Shown here: positions 28,222 through 38,879 of the stretch, in pieces
Position numbering within the stretch: the stretch's first letter is position 1
How the letters are laid out: every line of letters starts with the position of its first letter
From: Escherichia phage ManiMatter_Bas94
Strand: one strand, 5' to 3'
DNA: 64,000 nt
Sequence record: PQ850617.1
Made by a program: the position numbers and the translations under genes
Notes under the pieces: model-generated
What the model was told of the DNA's origin: nothing
Database searches by the model: none
What the model saw: only the letters and a program-made list of their open reading frames with translations

Positions 28222-28715
28222 TTAGTGTGTATGCATCCAGTTTAACCCAATCTGACAATCAGAAGCCAGAGGACACTCCATGTTCAAGTACTCACCAGCC
28301 TTCTTAACACAAAGCTCGGTGTACTCTTTGAGTTTCTGTACATCATTACGGTTCACTGAGAACTGGCCCTCATCGTGCATATCAATTACCTTAGCACAAC
28401 GAACTCCATCTTTCTCAATCCACTTGTTAAGGAACATCATAGCATATTTCATAACAACAGCACCAGCACATTGCAGGAGTGTGTTAAGGGCTTTATGAAC
28501 CATAACCTTACCAGTGGCATCCCGTCTCATTGTAATCTTACGACCATCAACGCCAATCAAATACCCTTGAGCAGCTTTCTCTGTCATACGATCAATGAGG
28601 ATTGCAATACATGGGTTCTCTGCCAAGAAGCGTGCTCGCATCACTGAACCTTCGTCAGCTCCACCACCTACGATTGAACCAAGCTTAGCATCACCAGCAC
28701 CATAGTTAAACGCAT
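28222..28715 (-). CDS. DNA polymerase (family A, T7 gp5-like), exon 2
   Basis: Frame open upstream of track ORF to 28716; encodes ...FNYGAGDAKLGSIVGGG...VHKALNTLLQ...VIDMHDEGQF (motif C HDE) ...GLNWMHTH. Confidence 0.75.
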
Positions 28716-29421
28716 CTCATATATTCGACAAGAGCCGCAACACTCTCGCCCGTTCTCTTATGAACTGCTACATGTCGCCATGTAGGATAGACTATATCAT
28801 CACCCTCTGTCGAGGGGTTGGGCGCTTCCACCGGCATTAGCTTCCGGTGTACTCCTTTCGGATAGTCGTTGCACCTTCAAGTATTCTATAGCTGTTTCTA
28901 ATCGGCTAACATCATCTTTCAATAGCCCTAAAGCTCTGTTGCAGTTGTGACACAACAGACCGCGTATTACTCCGGATTCATGGCAATGATCAACCACAAG
29001 TTTAATTCTGTGATGTGTTGCCATTGCAAACCCTTCGCCCTTACAGATAGCACACTTCCCATCCTGATCAGCGTACATCTTTTCGTAATCGCTGGCTGTG
29101 ATTCCATAAATTCGTTTGAAGTAGGAATTTCTCCAGCCCCTATCTTTGCATTCATCAGAGCAATAATGTTCAGATGGTGCATTTGGTTGAAAATCTTTTG
29201 AGCAATTACGACAAGGTTTTGGATTGAACCGACCTTGAGGGTATTTACTTGCCTCAGCAGTCTGTTCTTCTTTAGTTTTAGTTACAGTTGTATATTCCAT
29301 AAGCACCTCCATGTTGAGTTGCTATAGAATACTTGCTTGGCTCAGGATTGTCTACTAGAGAGTTTCCCTGAGTTCACCCAATTTAATCGACGAGATTACT
29401 CTCGAAGTATCCATTTACGTC
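28716..29421 (-). mobile_element. Group-I-like intron in DNA polymerase motif B, carrying a homing endonuclease ORF
   Basis: 706-nt interruption; upstream exon ends in U, intron ends in G; joining restores TFI-Y-AFNYGAGD in frame. Confidence 0.6.
28800..29312 (-). CDS. HNH homing endonuclease, endonuclease VII-like
   Basis: KCAICKGEGF...VVDHCHESGVIRGLLCHNCNRALG signature. Confidence 0.75.
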   Translation of the reverse strand: MEVLMEYTTVTKTKEEQTAEASKYPQGRFNPKPCRNCSKDFQPNAPSEHYCSDECKDRGWRNSYFKRIYGITASDYEKMYADQDGKCAICKGEGFAMATHHRIKLVVDHCHESGVIRGLLCHNCNRALGLLKDDVSRLETAIEYLKVQRLSERSTPEANAGGSAQPLDRG

Positions 29422-30772
29422 AGATAAACGTTTTAGCGTTGTCACGAGTAGGAAGACCAGCAAGTTTCTGGTTGTGGGAGTGGATATCACCTTCAAGAAG
29501 GATATCACGATACATAATAGCAGAAGCTAAACCACGTTCTGCCAGAGCTTTCTTAGCTGGATTATTCTCTTCGATTGCTTCAGCAAGCATATCCCTACAT
29601 TCTTTAATGAGGTAGTGAGCGAGCATACGAAGTTCAAGTCCAGAACCATCATACCCTAAGAATACTTCTTTACCAGCGGGTATGTAATATTTGTAAGCAC
29701 CTACAGGCTTATCTTTCTTCCCCGGCTTACCTTTCTCGTAAATTACGTTAGTACCTTTTCGTATATAACAACCATCAGGAACAACGTTAGTAATAACGAA
29801 AGGACGAGAGTGATCACTGTCTGAATTATAGTCAGACTCAAACAAACTGCGACACTCATGACCAAACAAACCACGGGAGGGAATATTAACCACGATACGA
29901 TGTTTGAATCGAAAAGTTGGCGTAGCGCAGCTGTTAGCTTCTGCCGAAAGTTTACCATCTTCGCGTTCCTTTGCTATGAGTCCACTGATAAGACCTAGCC
30001 TGTGAGCCGCTACAACGCGCCTCTTAAGCAAACTTCCAACACTCCCTAGCTCGCCCCCTAACCCTTCTTCAAGAGTCTCCTCGAGGTTTGTAGGAGCTGT
30101 AGGCCACTTGTTTGAGGTAGCTAGTGCTATCTTAATCTCATCAAACGTGATAGGTCTACGTCGGTTAGGGTTTAAACCTAAACCAAACACATAAGCCTTC
30201 ATATAGTTCTTAGTCTTAAACCTAAAATGCTTCTCTAAGAACCTCCTAATATCTGCGTCAACCATCTCGGCTGTCTGCTTCTGTTTAGCATTACCTCGAA
30301 TCCAAGCTGAATACCACGCTTGGTATGTTCCATACTTTCGTATATCTTTCTTGATTTCAAAAGTATTCCAAGGTTTCTTTGATACGTTAAACTCTGGAGG
30401 AAGAAAACCCTCATCCATAAGGGCTTCTTTAACTCGTGCATCTTTCGATGGGTCAAAGTCCACGTATTCAACACAGGTGAATGCTCCACCAATGTCTTCT
30501 CTCTTAAGGCCAACTCTATCACAATAGGCTTGAGGCCACTTCTGTAAAGCTCCAGACTTCTTAAATGGCTTCATATAAGTAGAGCCATCTAATCTCATCT
30601 TAGGTAAGAGAGGGATCAGTTCTTTGTCGATATTAACAATAATCTCTTTAAGGAGGTGAACATACCACCGAGCATTTCTTCGGTTGAAACTCACTCCGTG
30701 CTTCGCTTGCTTAGAGATTATATCAGCGACAGTCATCTCTGTCAAAAATGGGAGAGCGTCCGGGTTGCTCAC
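29422..30772 (-). CDS. DNA polymerase (family A, T7 gp5-like), exon 1
   Basis: LGYDGSGLELRMLAH (motif A) and PTRDNAKTFI (start of motif B); no 3'-5' exo domain in this ORF. Confidence 0.8.
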
Positions 30773-33419: not shown

Positions 33420-33776
33420 TCATACTGGTTGATTGCTCTTGTTAGTACCCACACTTTCATTATTCTTCTCTTTATGAAGTCTATAAACAGCTGTCGCCAT
33501 GCAAGCAACAGCTTCATTGTGTGGGAGATGCATCCCTGTAGAACCATCCCAATCTTTGAACTCATTGTCAAAGACTCCGGTAGGCTCTGGATACAGAGCT
33601 TGCAGCTCAACCAAATCATTAGCAACTTGTTGCCATTTATCATCAGACCAGATAGGGTCATCCAACCAGTAATACAAATAGGAATGGATGATTAATTGCC
33701 TTCTGTGCCGATTAATTACTTCAGCGGGACTTATCTCACTTCCATTTGAAGTCCTAAATGTATTACTGTCAATCAT
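33420..33776 (-). CDS. Hypothetical protein
   Basis: 118-aa ORF. Confidence 0.4.
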   Translation of the reverse strand: MIDSNTFRTSNGSEISPAEVINRHRRQLIIHSYLYYWLDDPIWSDDKWQQVANDLVELQALYPEPTGVFDNEFKDWDGSTGMHLPHNEAVACMATAVYRLHKEKNNESVGTNKSNQPV

Positions 33777-33778
33777 GA

Positions 33779-34435
33779 TTAATTATTCCAAGTAGTTGAT
33801 AAGGCTTTCCAAGAGATAGGATAAAGTTTCTTCATTTCTTCATCAATAGTTTGTGCAAACAGTCGGACCTCATACTGAGCGTGCTCTGACAGACGTTGAC
33901 GGCACACATCTGACCAGCCATATAGAGAGCCAGTCCACACCCACTCAGTGATCATCCCCTGAGGAAGAACAAATCGAGCTTGCTCTGGTGCAACAAATTC
34001 AATCAACTTATCATATGCTGCTAGAGAGGATTCATATGCATCGTTAATCAGCATTAATGCTTCAGCTCGTTCTCCATCGATGAGTTGAACCCCTGAACCT
34101 GCATGGAGGTCCGAAGGTCTCGCAAAAATCTCTTTAGGGATGAAGACTTCAACTGCTCCATCTTTATACCGACGGGACATTTCGTTCCACGAGAATCCAA
34201 CCTGATGCTTGCCCAGCTGTCTCGCAATTGCGATAGGTGCTTTGCATCGGAAACTGACTTGTGGGTGTCGGAATGGAGTAACATGCTTTTCTCTTGCGAG
34301 GAAGTTGATGAGACGTTCATCACGTTCATTTAAATCACCTTCACGGGTTACGCCAAAGGAAACTCGAGCTGCGTTTACTACGCTACGATCGCTTCCCATA
34401 GCTTCGATTAATGTTGCTTGTAGTTGTTCATTCAT
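33779..34435 (-). CDS. thyX: ThyX-like protein (flavin-dependent thymidylate synthase family), variant signature
   Basis: AARVSF...HVTPFRH...KHQVGFSWNEMSRRY resembles the ThyX RHR-x7-S...RY motif but with KHQ in place of RHR. Confidence 0.6.
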   Translation of the reverse strand: MNEQLQATLIEAMGSDRSVVNAARVSFGVTREGDLNERDERLINFLAREKHVTPFRHPQVSFRCKAPIAIARQLGKHQVGFSWNEMSRRYKDGAVEVFIPKEIFARPSDLHAGSGVQLIDGERAEALMLINDAYESSLAAYDKLIEFVAPEQARFVLPQGMITEWVWTGSLYGWSDVCRQRLSEHAQYEVRLFAQTIDEEMKKLYPISWKALSTTWNN

Positions 34436-34450
34436 CCGTGAATATCCTTA

Positions 34451-34726
34451 TTATTTATTGCTCAGTGCTGTGTCCAAAAATGCTTTCAGGTTTGCTTCAG
34501 TCTGCATACCAGAGAGGCTGTAATGTGCGCCACTATTCCGGTCAGGCACAACGAAAGCAGGAATGCTTCGTACACCATACTTAACAGCTTGTTCACGACC
34601 GTCACCCTCAAGGATATTAATCTCTTCCACTTCTACATCGAACTCCTTAACAACCTTCTCAAAGATAGGAGCCATTGCTTTACATGGAGCACACTGATCA
34701 CTATAAAACTTAATTACTTTAGACAT
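34451..34726 (-). CDS. Thioredoxin
   Basis: FYSDQCAPCKAMAP active site (CxxC, here CAPC), ~90 aa thioredoxin-size. Confidence 0.8.
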   Translation of the reverse strand: MSKVIKFYSDQCAPCKAMAPIFEKVVKEFDVEVEEINILEGDGREQAVKYGVRSIPAFVVPDRNSGAHYSLSGMQTEANLKAFLDTALSNK

Positions 34727-34735
34727 GTAAATCCT

Positions 34736-34914
34736 TATGCAGTCAGGAGGTGAAGCAGGAATGGGATAACAACAGCTACGACAACCATGATAGTTGATGC
34801 TGTTTGAATCTCACCTTTCTTGTCAGGGGTTTCTTCGATAAGCTTACCAGAAGCCCAATAGATACCACCACCAATAAAGATAGCCCAAATACCCCATACG
34901 ATAGCTGATAACAT
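34736..34914 (-). CDS. Small two-TM membrane protein (59 aa)
   Basis: ORF below track threshold: MLSAIVWGIWAIFIGGGIYWASGKL... Confidence 0.35.
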
Positions 34915-34972
34915 ATATCTATATCCTTATAAAGAGAAAACCCCGTCTATTCCTAGACAGGGCTTGAGTTTT

Positions 34973-35536
34973 TTAGTAAGACACATCACCACTTGAGTGG
35001 GACATGTTGCTCTTGACAAAGTAGCAATACTTGCCAAGACCTTCATTAATTTCTTGAAGCATACTTTGATCGACTGGATAAGTGGCTAAATCGCCATCAA
35101 ACTCATCCATCTTCTCAATAATACACAACAAGGTCATGCACATATCAGAGAGCATACCGTCCATGTCTAGATCAGCGTTACCCTCTGAGAACCAAGCATG
35201 AGAGAGGTAGTTAGCTGCTGTAGCATCCACTTTAACACAGTGGTAACGCATACGTTCAGCAATACGATCTCCTACTTGTCGTGCGTAATCTTCCAGCTCG
35301 TCAAACATACCATGAACACCCTGAAATCCTGCACCAGAGACGTTCCAGTGGTAGTTTTTAGCTTTGATGTGCAAGAGTTCCATATTAGCTTGTAAGCAGC
35401 TCAGGATGTGTTCTAGGCTGTTTCCACTAATCATACCCTGCATCGTTTCAAGGCGAGAGATTGATAGGTCGGACCGGTCTAACATGCTATAACTGTCACG
35501 ACCAATATCAGGTAAATCAAAGACATTCTTATGCAT
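34973..35536 (-). CDS. Dps/ferritin-like protein
   Basis: KNYHWNVSGAGFQGVHGMFDELEDYARQVGDRIAERM matches the Dps signature. Confidence 0.55.
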   Translation of the reverse strand: MHKNVFDLPDIGRDSYSMLDRSDLSISRLETMQGMISGNSLEHILSCLQANMELLHIKAKNYHWNVSGAGFQGVHGMFDELEDYARQVGDRIAERMRYHCVKVDATAANYLSHAWFSEGNADLDMDGMLSDMCMTLLCIIEKMDEFDGDLATYPVDQSMLQEINEGLGKYCYFVKSNMSHSSGDVSY

Positions 35537-36023
35537 TATATTCCCTCCAAGTTTGATTAAGTAGAACTTTTGATATCACTTGCTGAGAGACACCAAAACG
35601 TCTTGCAAGGGCAGAGCCTCCAAACTCTTTATCTCGAGGAATATAAACTCTCCTACAGTACTCTACATCTTTTAGAGTAAGTTTAGACTGCGGATTGTCT
35701 TCTCCAAACCTCTGTACCATCAAACCTAGTGATGATGCATGTTGAGAGTTTTCTCGGTGGGTACACCATTCAAGATTATCTTTATGATTATTAAGTTTAT
35801 TGCCATCCTTATGGTTGACACACGGAAGATTATCAGGGTTCGGTATGTATTTACTAGCAACCAACCTGTGGACATAGAAATTTTTTAATCCGTCAGGAAA
35901 GTAAATAGTAACTCTATAATAGGCACCATTAGTGCGGAGGGTTAAAAACCTCCCACTCTTTACAGTAAATACTCTACCATCTTCTGTTACATCAATCTTC
36001 CCTTCCAATTCCTTTGGAATCAC
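35529..36023 (-). CDS. Free-standing HNH homing endonuclease
   Basis: CVNHKDGNKLNNHKDNLEWCTHRENSQH motif plus C-terminal HTH-like region. Confidence 0.7.
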   Translation of the reverse strand: MIPKELEGKIDVTEDGRVFTVKSGRFLTLRTNGAYYRVTIYFPDGLKNFYVHRLVASKYIPNPDNLPCVNHKDGNKLNNHKDNLEWCTHRENSQHASSLGLMVQRFGEDNPQSKLTLKDVEYCRRVYIPRDKEFGGSALARRFGVSQQVISKVLLNQTWREYNA

Positions 36024-36839: not shown

Positions 36840-37040
36840 CTATCTGTCAACCGATTCAGGGACAAACTGCATTACACAGACCTGATTACGAGGAAGGTTT
36901 ATTTCACAAGCAGCTTTTCTATCAGCAACCTTAGATGACGAGTTAGGGCCAATTTGAGCCATCATTAATCCCATAGCGAACATGCCGAGGCTTACACCAA
37001 TTACTAAAGATGCTATAATTTCTTGTTTCATTTTGATCAT
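36840..37040 (-). CDS. Small membrane protein
   Basis: 66 aa, central hydrophobic segment. Confidence 0.35.
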   Translation of the reverse strand: MIKMKQEIIASLVIGVSLGMFAMGLMMAQIGPNSSSKVADRKAACEINLPRNQVCVMQFVPESVDR

Positions 37041-37570
37041 ACCCCTTTAGATGCAACTACACCATTACTGCCGTTATAACGACCCTTCACCGCATAGGAA
37101 TCATCACCAGCGTGAGAGTGCTCAAACATAACCATCTGACCAACACGCATACCAGCACGAACTCGTAAGCTATGATGCTTGGTTACGTTATGGAACTCAA
37201 ATGTCAGCTTACTACTGTTAAACCCTGCGTCTGCCCATCCGGCGTGGAGGTGGTTCAAACCACAACGAGCCATAGATGAACGCAGGACAAACAGGCTTGA
37301 AATGTTATCTGGAAGGTTAAACTCCTCCATAGAGTGAGCCAAGAAGAACTGACCCGGAGTGATAACCAAACCCTCTTCAGGAATTTTTACTTCCTTCCAC
37401 TGAAGATTCTCTTTCGCATCAATATCAACGATGCCATCAGCCTGTTCTTCAACAAGGATAGTATCACCAATACGGATATCCACACTAGCAGCGTTAACAT
37501 ACTTATGCTCCGCATCCAGATAGCCATTGTCAATTACATCATGCAGTTCAATACTTCCTAGTAAACTCAT
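37037..37570 (-). CDS. dcd: dCTP deaminase
   Basis: VDIRIGD, LRSSMARCGL, AGWADAGF and C-terminal GVVASKGV match the Dcd family. Confidence 0.8.
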   Translation of the reverse strand: MSLLGSIELHDVIDNGYLDAEHKYVNAASVDIRIGDTILVEEQADGIVDIDAKENLQWKEVKIPEEGLVITPGQFFLAHSMEEFNLPDNISSLFVLRSSMARCGLNHLHAGWADAGFNSSKLTFEFHNVTKHHSLRVRAGMRVGQMVMFEHSHAGDDSYAVKGRYNGSNGVVASKGV

Positions 37571-37579
37571 TCTTATTCC

Positions 37580-38878
37580 TTAGTTATTTGTTTCTATGTC
37601 AAAAGAGAATCCACGACCCGCTTCATCGGCAAACCGAACTGTATGGGTTTGAGGCTCTAATACTTCAGGGTTGTTAGCAATAAAGCGATCAGCGAGACTA
37701 CGACTGACAGTCTCAGCTAACTCTCCATGAGAAGGGATATCAAGATCACCAGCAGCAAAACCCTGACCAGAGAACTGACGTGCGCTAACAGTTAAACCAT
37801 TTGGTCGACCATTAGAACGTCTAGACAACCACTGCTCAAATGAATCACTAGTAACACCAAGAGCCTCTTCAAAAGATGTTCTACGAGTAGGGCTTACTCT
37901 TCGTGACTCTTGTGCTCGACGCATTGCAGGGGCTACAAACACCCCTTCAATTGCATTGTGTCGGTTAGGTTCGTCTTCTCGACCAAGCAGATCACCGCCT
38001 GTGTTAGTCGTTAAGTTTGTTAACCCTTCAGACCAATACGCACGAATCTGGCTAGAGCCATAAATGCTTGACATTAACTGAATCTCTTCATAAGGTATAT
38101 CAAAGAATCGACTCATATCTCGGTTAACACAATACTGAGCACTTGTTGTATCCTCAATAAGAGCAACCTGACCCCGTTCGTTGACCAGATGACTAACCGG
38201 CTGAGGTGTGGGAAGGTGTCGAGTTTGGGCCATGTATTGATATGCAGCTGCTGGAGAGGAAAATCTCAACACTTGCGAGTTAGGCCACTTCTTGTGAACA
38301 TACCTGATTTCACGACTAGAAACAACCACTGGACAAGGGGCGGTCATAGCCAAGTATCCATGAGGGGTCATGAATAAGTTATCAAGAGTCATCGCACCAC
38401 GGCACATCATAGGAAAATTATCCAATACCTCTTCAATAGAAGTAGGATAATTAAACATGAATTGGATACGAACACCATTCCACTGAAACTCAATAATATC
38501 AGTGAATGTTAATTGAGAACCCCCAGCATATGGCTCATCTGTAGCTTCAACAAGAAGAGATGAATACTCAATATCTTGTGATTCAAGCCATTCCTTCACA
38601 TTGCTTTCAATCTCCCGTCCAAGCATTTGCCACTGCTCGGCTGGGATAAAGGTATTTCGAGTTCTTGGTGTTTGTCCTCTGACAATAAAGATATCAATGT
38701 CATGTGGAGCTATGTTATTAAGAACAGCATCACGAATAGCTCCACCAGTAATGATAGGGCAAATACCATCTGGAATCAAGTTGTTGTTAATCAACTGTTC
38801 AATGAAGTGACGACCAACAGTGATATCAGGTTGTTGAGCAACCTTATCTTCAATTCGGTTAATCGGGATAACAATCAT
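37580..38878 (-). CDS. Nucleotidyltransferase with CCA-adding/poly(A) polymerase-type head, Ser/Arg-rich C-terminus
   Basis: PIITGGAIRDAVLNNIAPHDIDIFIV (GGxxRD...DxD); likely start at Met 38878 just after exo stop. Confidence 0.5.
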   Translation of the reverse strand: MIVIPINRIEDKVAQQPDITVGRHFIEQLINNNLIPDGICPIITGGAIRDAVLNNIAPHDIDIFIVRGQTPRTRNTFIPAEQWQMLGREIESNVKEWLESQDIEYSSLLVEATDEPYAGGSQLTFTDIIEFQWNGVRIQFMFNYPTSIEEVLDNFPMMCRGAMTLDNLFMTPHGYLAMTAPCPVVVSSREIRYVHKKWPNSQVLRFSSPAAAYQYMAQTRHLPTPQPVSHLVNERGQVALIEDTTSAQYCVNRDMSRFFDIPYEEIQLMSSIYGSSQIRAYWSEGLTNLTTNTGGDLLGREDEPNRHNAIEGVFVAPAMRRAQESRRVSPTRRTSFEEALGVTSDSFEQWLSRRSNGRPNGLTVSARQFSGQGFAAGDLDIPSHGELAETVSRSLADRFIANNPEVLEPQTHTVRFADEAGRGFSFDIETNN

Positions 38879-38879
38879 T

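Follow-up and report, generated by a model that had tools for sequence, protein, structure and literature searches.

The stretch of DNA analysed here (the window; 64,000 nucleotides, G+C ~0.42) comes from Escherichia phage ManiMatter_Bas94 (PQ850617.1), a Gordonclarkvirinae (phiEco32/Kuravirus-type) podophage of E. coli. Three genes on the minus strand form the core of the locus: a Dps-like mini-ferritin of 187 aa (34973..35536), a short thioredoxin of 91 aa with a QCAPC active site (34451..34726) and a flavin-dependent thymidylate synthase, ThyX, of 218 aa (33779..34435). Several neighbours are found on the same strand. A dCTP deaminase of 177 aa lies at 37037..37570 (Pfam DCD, E = 3.6e-34; NCBIfam equivalog TIGR02274, 106.3 bits against a cut-off of 92.8), which confirms an earlier note on this DNA that had placed such a gene 1.5 kb upstream, a position that is correct with respect to transcription. 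Between the Dps-like and thioredoxin genes sits a membrane ORF of 59 aa with two hydrophobic helices (34735..34914), which is conserved in the lineage and matches PHROG 9296 over its full length (E = 3.7e-34). Directly past the Dps-like stop codon, a consensus scan and the sequence itself point to a terminator-like hairpin (34938..34965), a 12-bp stem followed by a T-run, that stands between the Dps-like gene and the two genes for thioredoxin and ThyX; with only two terminator-like sites within 6.5 kb, their number does not exceed the shuffle expectation. Directly downstream of ThyX, a stand-alone NAD+-ligase Ia-domain protein of 118 aa, not a full ligase, is encoded at 33420..33776 (Pfam Nlig-Ia, E = 2.5e-35, residues 16-103; PHROG 6466). 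PDB sequence searches with this protein and with an uncharacterised nucleotidyltransferase (37580-38935) gave nothing useful, and scans of the region for Rfam families and tRNAs had no hits.

The cluster of ThyX, thioredoxin and Dps-like genes is an ordinary and already known one. Over this region the DNA identity is 99.4% to phage AidaStucki Bas93 and ~94% to phiEco32 and SU10, and these three Gordonclarkvirinae phages carry orthologous genes for ThyX, thioredoxin and the Dps-domain protein in identical order. The genes are annotated in phiEco32. Annotations of Dps and thioredoxin date from 2008-2014, and thioredoxin and a DPS-domain protein have been listed before as conserved across all C3 phages (PMC4281155). 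A partnership of thioredoxin and polymerase has also been proposed already for C3-morphotype phages (PMC7881722). The cluster is hence of little importance as a finding: both its annotation in phiEco32-type phages (2008-2014) and the proposed link from thioredoxin to polymerase were on record before.

The gene at 33779..34435 had been called ThyX-like from its letters, and profile searches bear this out. The protein, which contains KHQVGFSWNEMSRRY, matches Pfam Thy1 (PF02511) over its full length (E = 8.8e-44, 150 bits against a cut-off of 24.8), belongs to PHROG 85 and passes the cut-off of the NCBIfam equivalog TIGR02170 (128.3 bits against 87.9). With the ThyX proteins of T. maritima (TM0449) and T. 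thermophilus it shares the full-length profile match, the conserved residues and a length class of ~220 aa. We aligned the phage protein to both and took column statistics over 150 representatives, the nearest ones of 50%-identity clusters; positions are given in T. maritima numbering. The observation that KHQ stands in place of RHR is real, as the alignment sets K-H-Q on R78-H79-R80. In the phage protein the motif residues are K76-H77-Q78 and S87-R88-R89-Y90, with an insertion of one residue between KHQ and the S88 equivalent. The signature thus reads K-H-Q-x8-S-R-R-Y as against R-H-R-x7-S-x-R-Y in the family, and the literal RHR-x7-S signature (the Myllykallio motif) is absent. Compared with T. 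maritima ThyX, the phage protein also lacks an Arg165 equivalent and has Ser at the place of Asn163.

These changes are shared widely. KHQ was found in 120 of the 120 closest homologues and in most of the 150 representatives, only three of which have Arg at position 80. Position 89 is Arg in 141 of the 150, a gained Arg that gives SRRY, while position 165 holds hydrophobic residues of various kinds, so that the second FAD-phosphate Arg is lost. The dUMP-binding and catalytic residues H53, Q75, E86, S88, R90, Y91, R147 and R174 all have equivalents in the phage protein and are 93-100% conserved across the representatives; together with R74, which is likewise kept, they are nearly invariant. According to a review, RHR touches the phosphates, ribityl and isoalloxazine of FAD, and the residues changed in KHQ-type ThyX contact FAD phosphate and ribityl rather than the substrate (PMC6514825). 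Our literature search yielded nothing specific on the roles of Arg78 and Arg80 and no biochemical study of a KHQ-type ThyX, and the PDB hits of the phage protein held no solved KHQ-type structure. It seems that K-H-Q...S-R-R-Y marks a subfamily with rearranged FAD-phosphate contacts and an unchanged substrate pocket. The rearrangement would consist of a conservative change of the first Arg to Lys, the loss of the third Arg and of Arg165 from the partner subunit, and a new Arg beside the catalytic Ser-x-Arg.

The phage ThyX matches 1025 phage records from many unrelated groups, and the signature is found in bacteria as well. A scan of genome contigs with a strict IUPAC pattern found 47 loci, the ThyX sequences of which cluster by host taxonomy. 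Chloroflexota, Nitrospinota, Poribacteria and a spirochaete have the KHQ-type signature in their chromosomal thyX, with conserved neighbours: a 2-oxoacid dehydrogenase E2 gene in Chloroflexota (n=4), ispH in Nitrospinota (n=3) and an enolase-superfamily gene in Poribacteria (n=3). On the closed 1.79-Mb spirochaete chromosome (OZ251568.1), thyX is located between citrate synthase/SDR and a pyrF-pyrE fusion. Judged by these surroundings, the chromosomal KHQ-type genes are apparently housekeeping genes. The literal RHR-x7-S is too narrow for the family, since the deviation is common to close homologues, distant representatives and chromosomal bacterial thyX. It fails to describe a large, mostly viral subfamily that in several marine bacterial lineages also provides the chromosomal thyX, and motif-based filters (e.g. 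Stern et al. 2010) could drop this subfamily.

The phage enzyme would then be a normal flavin-dependent thymidylate synthase that makes dTMP, with FAD use predicted for the subfamily. Going by the established roles of the enzymes, dCTP deaminase, ThyX and dNMP kinase could lead from dCTP to dUTP or dUMP, on to dTMP and finally to dTDP. Such a pathway might suit a genome of 42% G+C that replicates in a host of ~51% G+C. The earlier note had read KHQ as a possible sign of altered substrate handling and of a modified pyrimidine. This is unsupported, because chromosomal thyX genes in a housekeeping context share the signature, no dUMP-binding or catalytic residue is lost and the protein passes the equivalog cut-off. 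KHQ is the norm of the subfamily, chromosomal bacterial genes included, which is what the note itself had named as the mark of a neutral variant. An enzyme that has diverged towards a C5-modified pyrimidine (e.g. 5-hydroxymethyl-dUMP), as part of a covalent DNA modification behind restriction resistance, would fit the altered RHR with its extra residue and the nearby nucleotidyltransferase and amidoligase/GATase cluster. It would also fit the unusual resistance of Gordonclarkvirinae to restriction-modification, for which no modification pathway is known and for which the BASEL authors suspect covalent modification (PMC11990801). However, the same signature is carried by chromosomally syntenic, apparently housekeeping bacterial genes and by many unrelated phage groups, the altered residues touch the flavin phosphates and not the substrate, all residues for dUMP and catalysis are kept, and the score exceeds the ThyX equivalog cut-off. 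We consider such a divergence very unlikely. A more elaborate version, in which a ThyX with a remodelled flavin site releases C5-modified dUMP that is elaborated by the nucleotidyltransferase and amidoligase genes and so explains the restriction resistance, we consider most improbable. As far as sequence can tell, the odd motif is no evidence for a modified DNA base. Some uncharacterised DNA chemistry is possible in these phages, because they resist restriction while no modification pathway is known (PMC11990801).

For the same phages the BASEL authors suggest dU-containing DNA (PMC11990801). A replacement of dT by dU seems unlikely to us: both ThyX and dNMP kinase are conserved in the lineage, which argues against it, and so does a ThyX that is apparently ordinary.

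The second gene, noted before as a phage thioredoxin with a CAPC site, matches Pfam Thioredoxin (PF00085; E = 3.5e-13, 49.9 bits against a cut-off of 23.5, profile positions 22-102 of 103). Its PDB matches are thioredoxins, among them E. coli TrxA from T7 polymerase complexes. The active site C12-A-P-C15 and the cis-Pro P56 are present, and C-x-P-C and cis-Pro are invariant in 12 homologues, down to 50% identity. Fold, C-x-P-C and cis-Pro are thus in common with the E. coli TrxA that serves T7 gp5, whereas the thioredoxin of ManiMatter_Bas94 is encoded by the phage. Canonical TrxA features (WCGPC, the buried Asp26 and the full five-strand four-helix fold) are missing: the phage protein has QCAPC instead of WCGPC, no W31, Lys for D26 and Ser for G74, and it lacks the N-terminal beta1-alpha1 of E. 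coli TrxA (the first ~20 residues). Its score against the equivalog TIGR01068, 50.7 bits, is below the cut-off of 96.8.

A putative docking site is found in the DNA polymerase. In the PDB, the polymerase exon at 29420-30772 hits nothing but T7 gp5, with residues 63-140 of the query aligned to T7 295-368. This PDB alignment and a MAFFT alignment (phage, T7 gp5, Proteus phage P59 polymerase, E. coli Pol I) delimit a T7-like thumb insertion of ~42 aa on the minus strand (30461..30586, ~residues 63-104), which is absent from E. coli Pol I. The insertion aligns to T7 295-335, the site of the T7 thioredoxin-binding domain in the thumb between helices H and H1, and stands, as in T7 gp5, between thumb helix H and the FNPSS/FDPSK motif. 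It is shorter than the T7 domain (~42 aa vs ~76 aa, about 60%) and resembles its C-terminal part, T7 315-335 (KREDIGGAFTCVEYV vs TREYVAGAPYTPVEHV), in a local alignment that is weak by itself (domain E ~2.4). A role of the thioredoxin as polymerase cofactor is therefore plausible. The shortened, redox-competent thioredoxin would most likely dock on the shortened T7-type insertion as a processivity factor, and it may also act as a general disulfide reductant.

Another possible hypothesis is that the thioredoxin is mainly a reductant for RNR or other thiols and not a polymerase subunit, that the Dps-like protein is an iron source or buffer for a di-iron RNR and that the pair is the remnant of a larger dNTP-synthesis block. 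Both cysteines and the cis-Pro are invariant, and the processivity role of thioredoxin in T7 does not require them. In phage P59 the Dps-like gene and a thioredoxin-like match are ~7 kb away from class Ia RNR alpha and beta genes, and the Dps-like gene adjoins an ORF of 111 aa annotated as anaerobic RNR. In Streptomyces phage KentuckyRacer a Dps-like gene has an RNR gene at a distance of ~4 kb and a ThyX-like gene at 1.6 kb. However, tblastn detected no RNR genes in the window, so that the thioredoxin is left without its simplest redox partner, and TrxA is already provided by the host. The thioredoxin family is also narrow, with 15 clusters in a protein search, and among phage records it matches C3-type podophage groups and two 'uncultured' records (one listed: crAss-like phage cr128_1). 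Both C3 polymerases that were aligned, those of ManiMatter_Bas94 and P59, have the thumb insertion. A main role in thiol reduction is hence conceivable but rather unlikely, and docking on the polymerase is the reading that we prefer.

The third gene codes for a protein containing HWNVSGAGFQGVHGMFDELEDYARQVGDRIAERM. Its assignment to the Dps/ferritin type is borne out by Pfam Ferritin (E = 2.8e-7), by PHROG 3636, by solved Dps proteins in the PDB (best E = 2.9e-9) and by the fit of an AlphaFold model. This AF2 model, of the monomer only (mean pLDDT 79), has helices at 41-65, 71-98, 107-112, 125-150 and 154-176, i.e. a four-helix bundle with a short BC helix, and its top 50 Foldseek hits in the PDB are all subunits of Dps dodecamers (TM 0.8-0.92, normalised to target). 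The five ferroxidase ligands H63, H75, D79, D90 and E94 are all present, invariant across the phage homologues (17 aligned sequences) and spaced exactly as H51/H63/D67/D78/E82 of E. coli Dps. The bundle with its BC helix, the five inter-subunit ligands at identical spacing and an adjacent Trp are shared with M. smegmatis Dps2, B. anthracis Dlp-2, B. subtilis MrgA and E. coli Dps. By its residues, the ferroxidase site is intact. Identity to bacterial Dps is ~20-27%, and the phage protein is below the NCBIfam equivalog cut-offs. In place of the flexible, Lys-rich DNA-binding tail of the E. coli type it has a conserved acidic N-terminal extension of ~45 aa (4 Lys/Arg and 7 Asp/Glu in the first 45 residues; pI of the protein 4.7), which makes the database label 'DNA-binding protein' doubtful. 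Most likely the protein forms a dodecamer and, as a mini-ferritin, uses H2O2 to oxidise and store Fe2+, by which it would curb Fenton damage to phage DNA during replication. As had been noted before, few phages carry Dps (167 of 50,697 phage records); in this lineage the gene is conserved and long annotated (PMC4281155). In the unrelated Streptomyces phage KentuckyRacer, Dps-like and ThyX-like genes are 1.6 kb apart.

It has to be considered whether the Dps-like protein is instead a structural component that is associated with virion or DNA and packaged or co-injected with the genome. In SU10 particle preparations it was detected by mass spectrometry at 35.8% coverage (PMC4281155), and it was also detected in purified Privateer virions (PMC7881722), SU10 and Privateer being distant C3 members. 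However, the SU10 preparation also held the non-structural polymerase, PhoH, sigma factor and glutamine amidotransferase (PMC4281155), and a dodecamer of ~250 kDa could co-purify with virions. The acidic N-terminus and the pI of 4.7 argue against direct DNA binding, and the invariant ferroxidase ligands point to selection for iron chemistry. A structural role is thus improbable, and we favour iron detoxification in the cytoplasm.

ThyX is known for an oxidase side reaction that produces H2O2, and a link between this reaction and the Dps-like protein is a speculation. We leave it as such, because Dps and thioredoxin are described for Privateer with no word on thymidylate, and the related phage P59 also has Dps and thioredoxin sequences. 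The Dps-like, thioredoxin and ThyX genes do not necessarily form one transcription unit either, since the membrane ORF and the terminator-like hairpin intervene; there may be more than one. In P59 the dCTP deaminase and Dps-like genes are found in one stretch with a thioredoxin-like sequence (tblastn) between them, and the Privateer paper reports Dps and thioredoxin with no mention of thymidylate (PMC7881722). Because of these arrangements and the hairpin, we regard the three genes as a syntenic neighbourhood and not as a proven functional unit. It would represent a conserved middle-gene (replication-phase) cluster for nucleotide and redox functions in a Gordonclarkvirinae phage. On the whole it is probable that this conserved cluster comprises a normal ThyX, a redox-competent shortened thioredoxin and a Dps-type mini-ferritin.

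One feature sets ManiMatter_Bas94 apart from phiEco32, SU10 and Bas93. An additional HNH homing endonuclease ORF on the minus strand (35529..36023; Pfam HNH_3, PHROG 59) abuts the Dps-like gene and overlaps its start by 8 nt. The annotation of Bas93 has no such gene, and megablast matches to Bas93, Bas92 and LAMP end at window position 35537, which marks the ORF as an insertion relative to the closest phages.

To judge from the homologues compared here, the altered signature of the phage ThyX is characteristic of a subfamily and can be reconciled with normal function. The protein (33779-34435, minus strand; PHROG 85) matches Pfam Thy1 over the whole profile (E = 8.8e-44) and scores 128.3 bits against the NCBIfam thyX equivalog cut-off of 87.9. 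In the HMMER alignment K-H-Q falls onto T. maritima ThyX R78-H79-R80, with a one-residue insertion ahead of S88, and the phage enzyme keeps H53, R74, Q75, E86, S88, R90, Y91, R147 and R174 (T. maritima numbering). According to a review of structures, the RHR residues of FDTS form hydrogen bonds to the AMP phosphate, the ribityl and the FMN phosphate of FAD, the first Arg makes a further contact with the isoalloxazine ring, and the adjacent subunit contributes a Ser and an Arg that complete the FAD site (PMC6514825). Hence the residues changed in the phage enzyme are cofactor contacts, not substrate contacts. We found K-H-Q-x-G-x-x-W-N-E-x-S-x-R-Y in 120/120 closest clusters, down to 55% identity, nearly all with SRRY. 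When the 150 top-ranking 50%-identity cluster representatives were aligned with T. maritima and T. thermophilus ThyX, position 78 (T. maritima numbering; canonically Arg) held Lys in 120 and Arg in 28, position 80 (canonically Arg) held Gln in 84, Thr in 22, Lys in 18 and Arg in only 3, and position 89 (canonically Gly) held Arg in 141; position 165, canonically the Arg that contacts FAD from the partner subunit, was variable hydrophobic, and the substrate and catalytic columns were essentially invariant. The KHQ variant thus appears to be a coordinated remodelling of the flavin-phosphate site in a whole ThyX subfamily and no single-phage lesion. By tblastn, 1025 phage records from many host groups carry this ThyX type. 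The ThyX-like product of Streptomyces phage KentuckyRacer gene 30 (L003:8982-9701) lies even further from RHR, with K-Y-A and a longer insertion in its place and W-N-E-S-S-R-R-Y kept, so departures from the textbook signature are common among phage enzymes. Stern et al. discarded sequences more than two residues off RHR-x7-S, a filter that could have left the KHQ-type subfamily out of their analysis. Inteins whose endonuclease cores are HNH or LAGLIDADG-like interrupt several metagenomic homologues, after KHQxGF / RHVVGT in P0121, P0134 and P0221 and in the His53 region in P0245 and P0260; the insertion points fall exactly within the K-H-Q-x-G-F|S-W-N-E or the H-x-T-P-F motif, where the enzyme is most constrained and such inserts are expected.

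The same ThyX type also occurs in bacteria. A scan with back-translated KHQ-x-G-x-x-W-[N/S]-E-x-S-R-R-Y, using one genome per bacterial or archaeal species, gave 47 loci among 185,579 species. Their products group according to host taxonomy (Poribacteria 78-97%, Nitrospinota 92-95%, SAR202/Dehalococcoidia 85-98%, two spirochaetes 66%). At four Chloroflexota loci thyX adjoins a 2-oxoacid dehydrogenase E2 gene; at three Nitrospinota loci its neighbour is ispH, and at three Poribacteria loci an enolase-superfamily gene. One Spirochaetia chromosome, closed at 1.79 Mb, has thyX flanked by citrate synthase/SDR and a pyrF-pyrE fusion, and the spirochaete protein is also above the ThyX equivalog cut-off. 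Taxonomic clustering, syntenic housekeeping neighbours and the spirochaete chromosomal context point to ordinary cellular genes. Other KHQ-type loci look phage-derived: in L009 thyX lies beside homologues of polymerase, primase-helicase and exonuclease, and in L013 beside those of primase-helicase and exonuclease. The subfamily therefore seems to take in vertically inherited cellular thyX genes. The earlier note had read KHQ as a possible sign of altered substrate handling, perhaps of a modified pyrimidine; the presence of KHQ in such cellular genes, the very kind of result that the note had said would refute it, leaves this reading unsupported.

A modified genome has been considered for these phages on other grounds. 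Gordonclarkvirinae are reported to be remarkably resistant to restriction-modification systems, and the dCTP deaminase and nucleotidyltransferase genes led the authors of the BASEL expansion to speculate that the DNA is covalently modified, 'most simply' with dU (PMC11990801). The deaminase (37037-37570, minus strand) is above its NCBIfam equivalog cut-off. Against dU-DNA we would set the conserved, apparently ordinary ThyX and a dNMP kinase annotated in Bas93, and the ThyX motif offers no positive evidence of DNA modification of any kind. Sequence searches of Pfam, NCBIfam and the PDB gave no match for the 451-aa 'nucleotidyltransferase' (37580-38935, minus strand; PHROG 12715), which contains a GGAIRD...DIDIF motif that recalls pol-beta-type nucleotidyltransferases.

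The thioredoxin (34451-34726, minus strand) matches Pfam Thioredoxin at profile positions 22-102 only (E = 3.5e-13). Relative to E. coli TrxA, the first ~20 residues are missing, WCGPC has become QCAPC, Asp26 is replaced by Lys and Gly74 by Ser, and the cis-Pro is kept. Its family comprises only 15 clusters in a large protein database, and C12, P14, C15 and the cis-Pro are invariant in the 12 of these that were compared, down to 50% identity. Among phage records it occurs in Gordonclarkvirinae, in Salmonella, Proteus and Cronobacter C3-type podophages, and in two 'uncultured' records, the listed one being crAss-like phage cr128_1. For polymerase exon 1 (29420-30772) the sole PDB match was T7 gp5, residues 63-140 aligning with T7 295-368. 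In a MAFFT alignment with T7 gp5, Proteus phage P59 polymerase and E. coli Pol I, the ManiMatter_Bas94 and P59 enzymes have ~42 extra residues located between thumb helix H and the F(N/D)PS(S/K) motif, exactly at the site of the T7 gp5 thioredoxin-binding domain, where E. coli Pol I has no insertion. Conservation is best at T7 315-335, which includes Glu319, a residue genetically linked to thioredoxin binding. Because of this thumb insertion at the T7 site, and because no RNR gene was detectable within the 64-kb window, it is reasonable to suggest that thioredoxin may act as processivity factor of the phage polymerase. Such a role has already been proposed for all C3-morphotype phages (Privateer paper, PMC7881722), and the idea, also raised in the earlier note, seems plausible and is not new. 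The T7-like polymerase gene itself is broken inside motif B (28650-29420), exon 1 ending ...TRDNAKTFI and exon 2 restarting ...AFNYGAGDAKLG. The ~0.7 kb intervening sequence contains an HNH/endonuclease VII-type ORF (28800-29312, minus strand); Bas93 annotation gives the polymerase as a two-piece join, and no Rfam model for a group I intron matched at gathering threshold.

The Dps-like protein (34973-35536, minus strand; PHROG 3636) matches Pfam Ferritin over residues 55-107 (E = 2.8e-7) and solved Dps proteins over residues 51-176 (best E = 2.9e-9). H63, H75, D79, D90 and E94 correspond with identical spacing to E. coli Dps H51, H63, D67, D78 and E82, and these five residues and an adjacent Trp are invariant in an alignment with Proteus phage P59, a Streptomyces phage and E. 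coli Dps. The AlphaFold model (mean pLDDT 79, core blocks at least 80) has four long helices and a short BC helix, and Dps dodecamer subunits made up 50/50 top Foldseek PDB matches (target-normalised TM 0.8-0.92). The 45-aa N-terminal extension is acidic and conserved in the lineage, and the pI of the protein is 4.7; the database label 'DNA binding protein' was probably inherited from the family name. The 'integrase' label in many Kuravirus GenBank records (H92-H95, H97, H101, H104; P0299) is a wrong, propagated misannotation. Dps homologues occur in 167/50,697 phage records, mostly of this podophage group but also Streptomyces BE-type phages, Aeromonas phages and a cyanophage. A DPS-domain protein and thioredoxin are conserved in all sequenced C3 phages, and both were seen by mass spectrometry in SU10, in a particle preparation that also held non-structural proteins (SU10 paper); Privateer Dps was detected in purified virions (PMC7881722).

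The earlier note had located the three ORFs and their peptides correctly, and the identifications of ThyX, thioredoxin and Dps-like protein are correct and already annotated in literature and GenBank. In a megablast search of phage genomes, 33400-36100 matched 98 records, nearly all Escherichia/Shigella phages of the phiEco32/Kuravirus group, led by AidaStucki Bas93 (99.4%), Bas92 (99.1%) and LAMP (97.8%), with phiEco32 and SU10 at ~94% identity. All genes of the region lie on the minus strand (G+C ~0.42), and the annotated order in Bas93 is DNA ligase, thymidylate synthase, thioredoxin domain, hypothetical protein, DNA binding protein, several small ORFs, dCTP deaminase, nucleotidyltransferase, polymerase exonuclease subunit and primase/helicase. 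The Dps-like and thioredoxin genes are separated by a conserved two-helix membrane ORF of 59 aa (minus strand) and by a terminator-like hairpin whose stem has 12 bp. Dps-like and thioredoxin sequences lie within ~1 kb of one another in Proteus and Cronobacter relatives (~40% identity) and within ~2 kb in a Salmonella relative, in differing order. Proteus phage P59 has dCTP deaminase and Dps-like genes together, ~7 kb from class Ia RNR genes, and in a Streptomyces phage the Dps-like gene is 1.6 kb upstream of the ThyX-like gene. Such proximity in Proteus, Cronobacter, Salmonella and Streptomyces phages supports a loose nucleotide-synthesis and replication neighbourhood rather than a demonstrated dedicated three-gene machine.

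An HNH homing endonuclease ORF (35529-36023, minus strand) shares 8 nt with the start of the Dps-like gene. It lies within the match to phage vB-EcoP-XT73, but Bas93, Bas92 and LAMP, the closest relatives, lack it, their megablast coverage ending at 35537. The 118-aa protein at 33420-33776 (minus strand), annotated in relatives as 'NAD-dependent DNA ligase', matches only the NAD+-binding Ia domain (Pfam Nlig-Ia, E = 2.5e-35); as the adenylation and OB domains are missing, it cannot act as a ligase by itself. An NAD+ diphosphatase is encoded in this region in some relatives. Minus-strand ORFs in 41438-48841 correspond by length and order to Bas93 genes annotated as gamma-glutamyl cyclotransferase, RimK-like ATP-grasp, class II glutamine amidotransferase, amidoligase and COOH-NH2 ligase, a peptide or metabolite-modification cluster typical of phiEco32-type phages.
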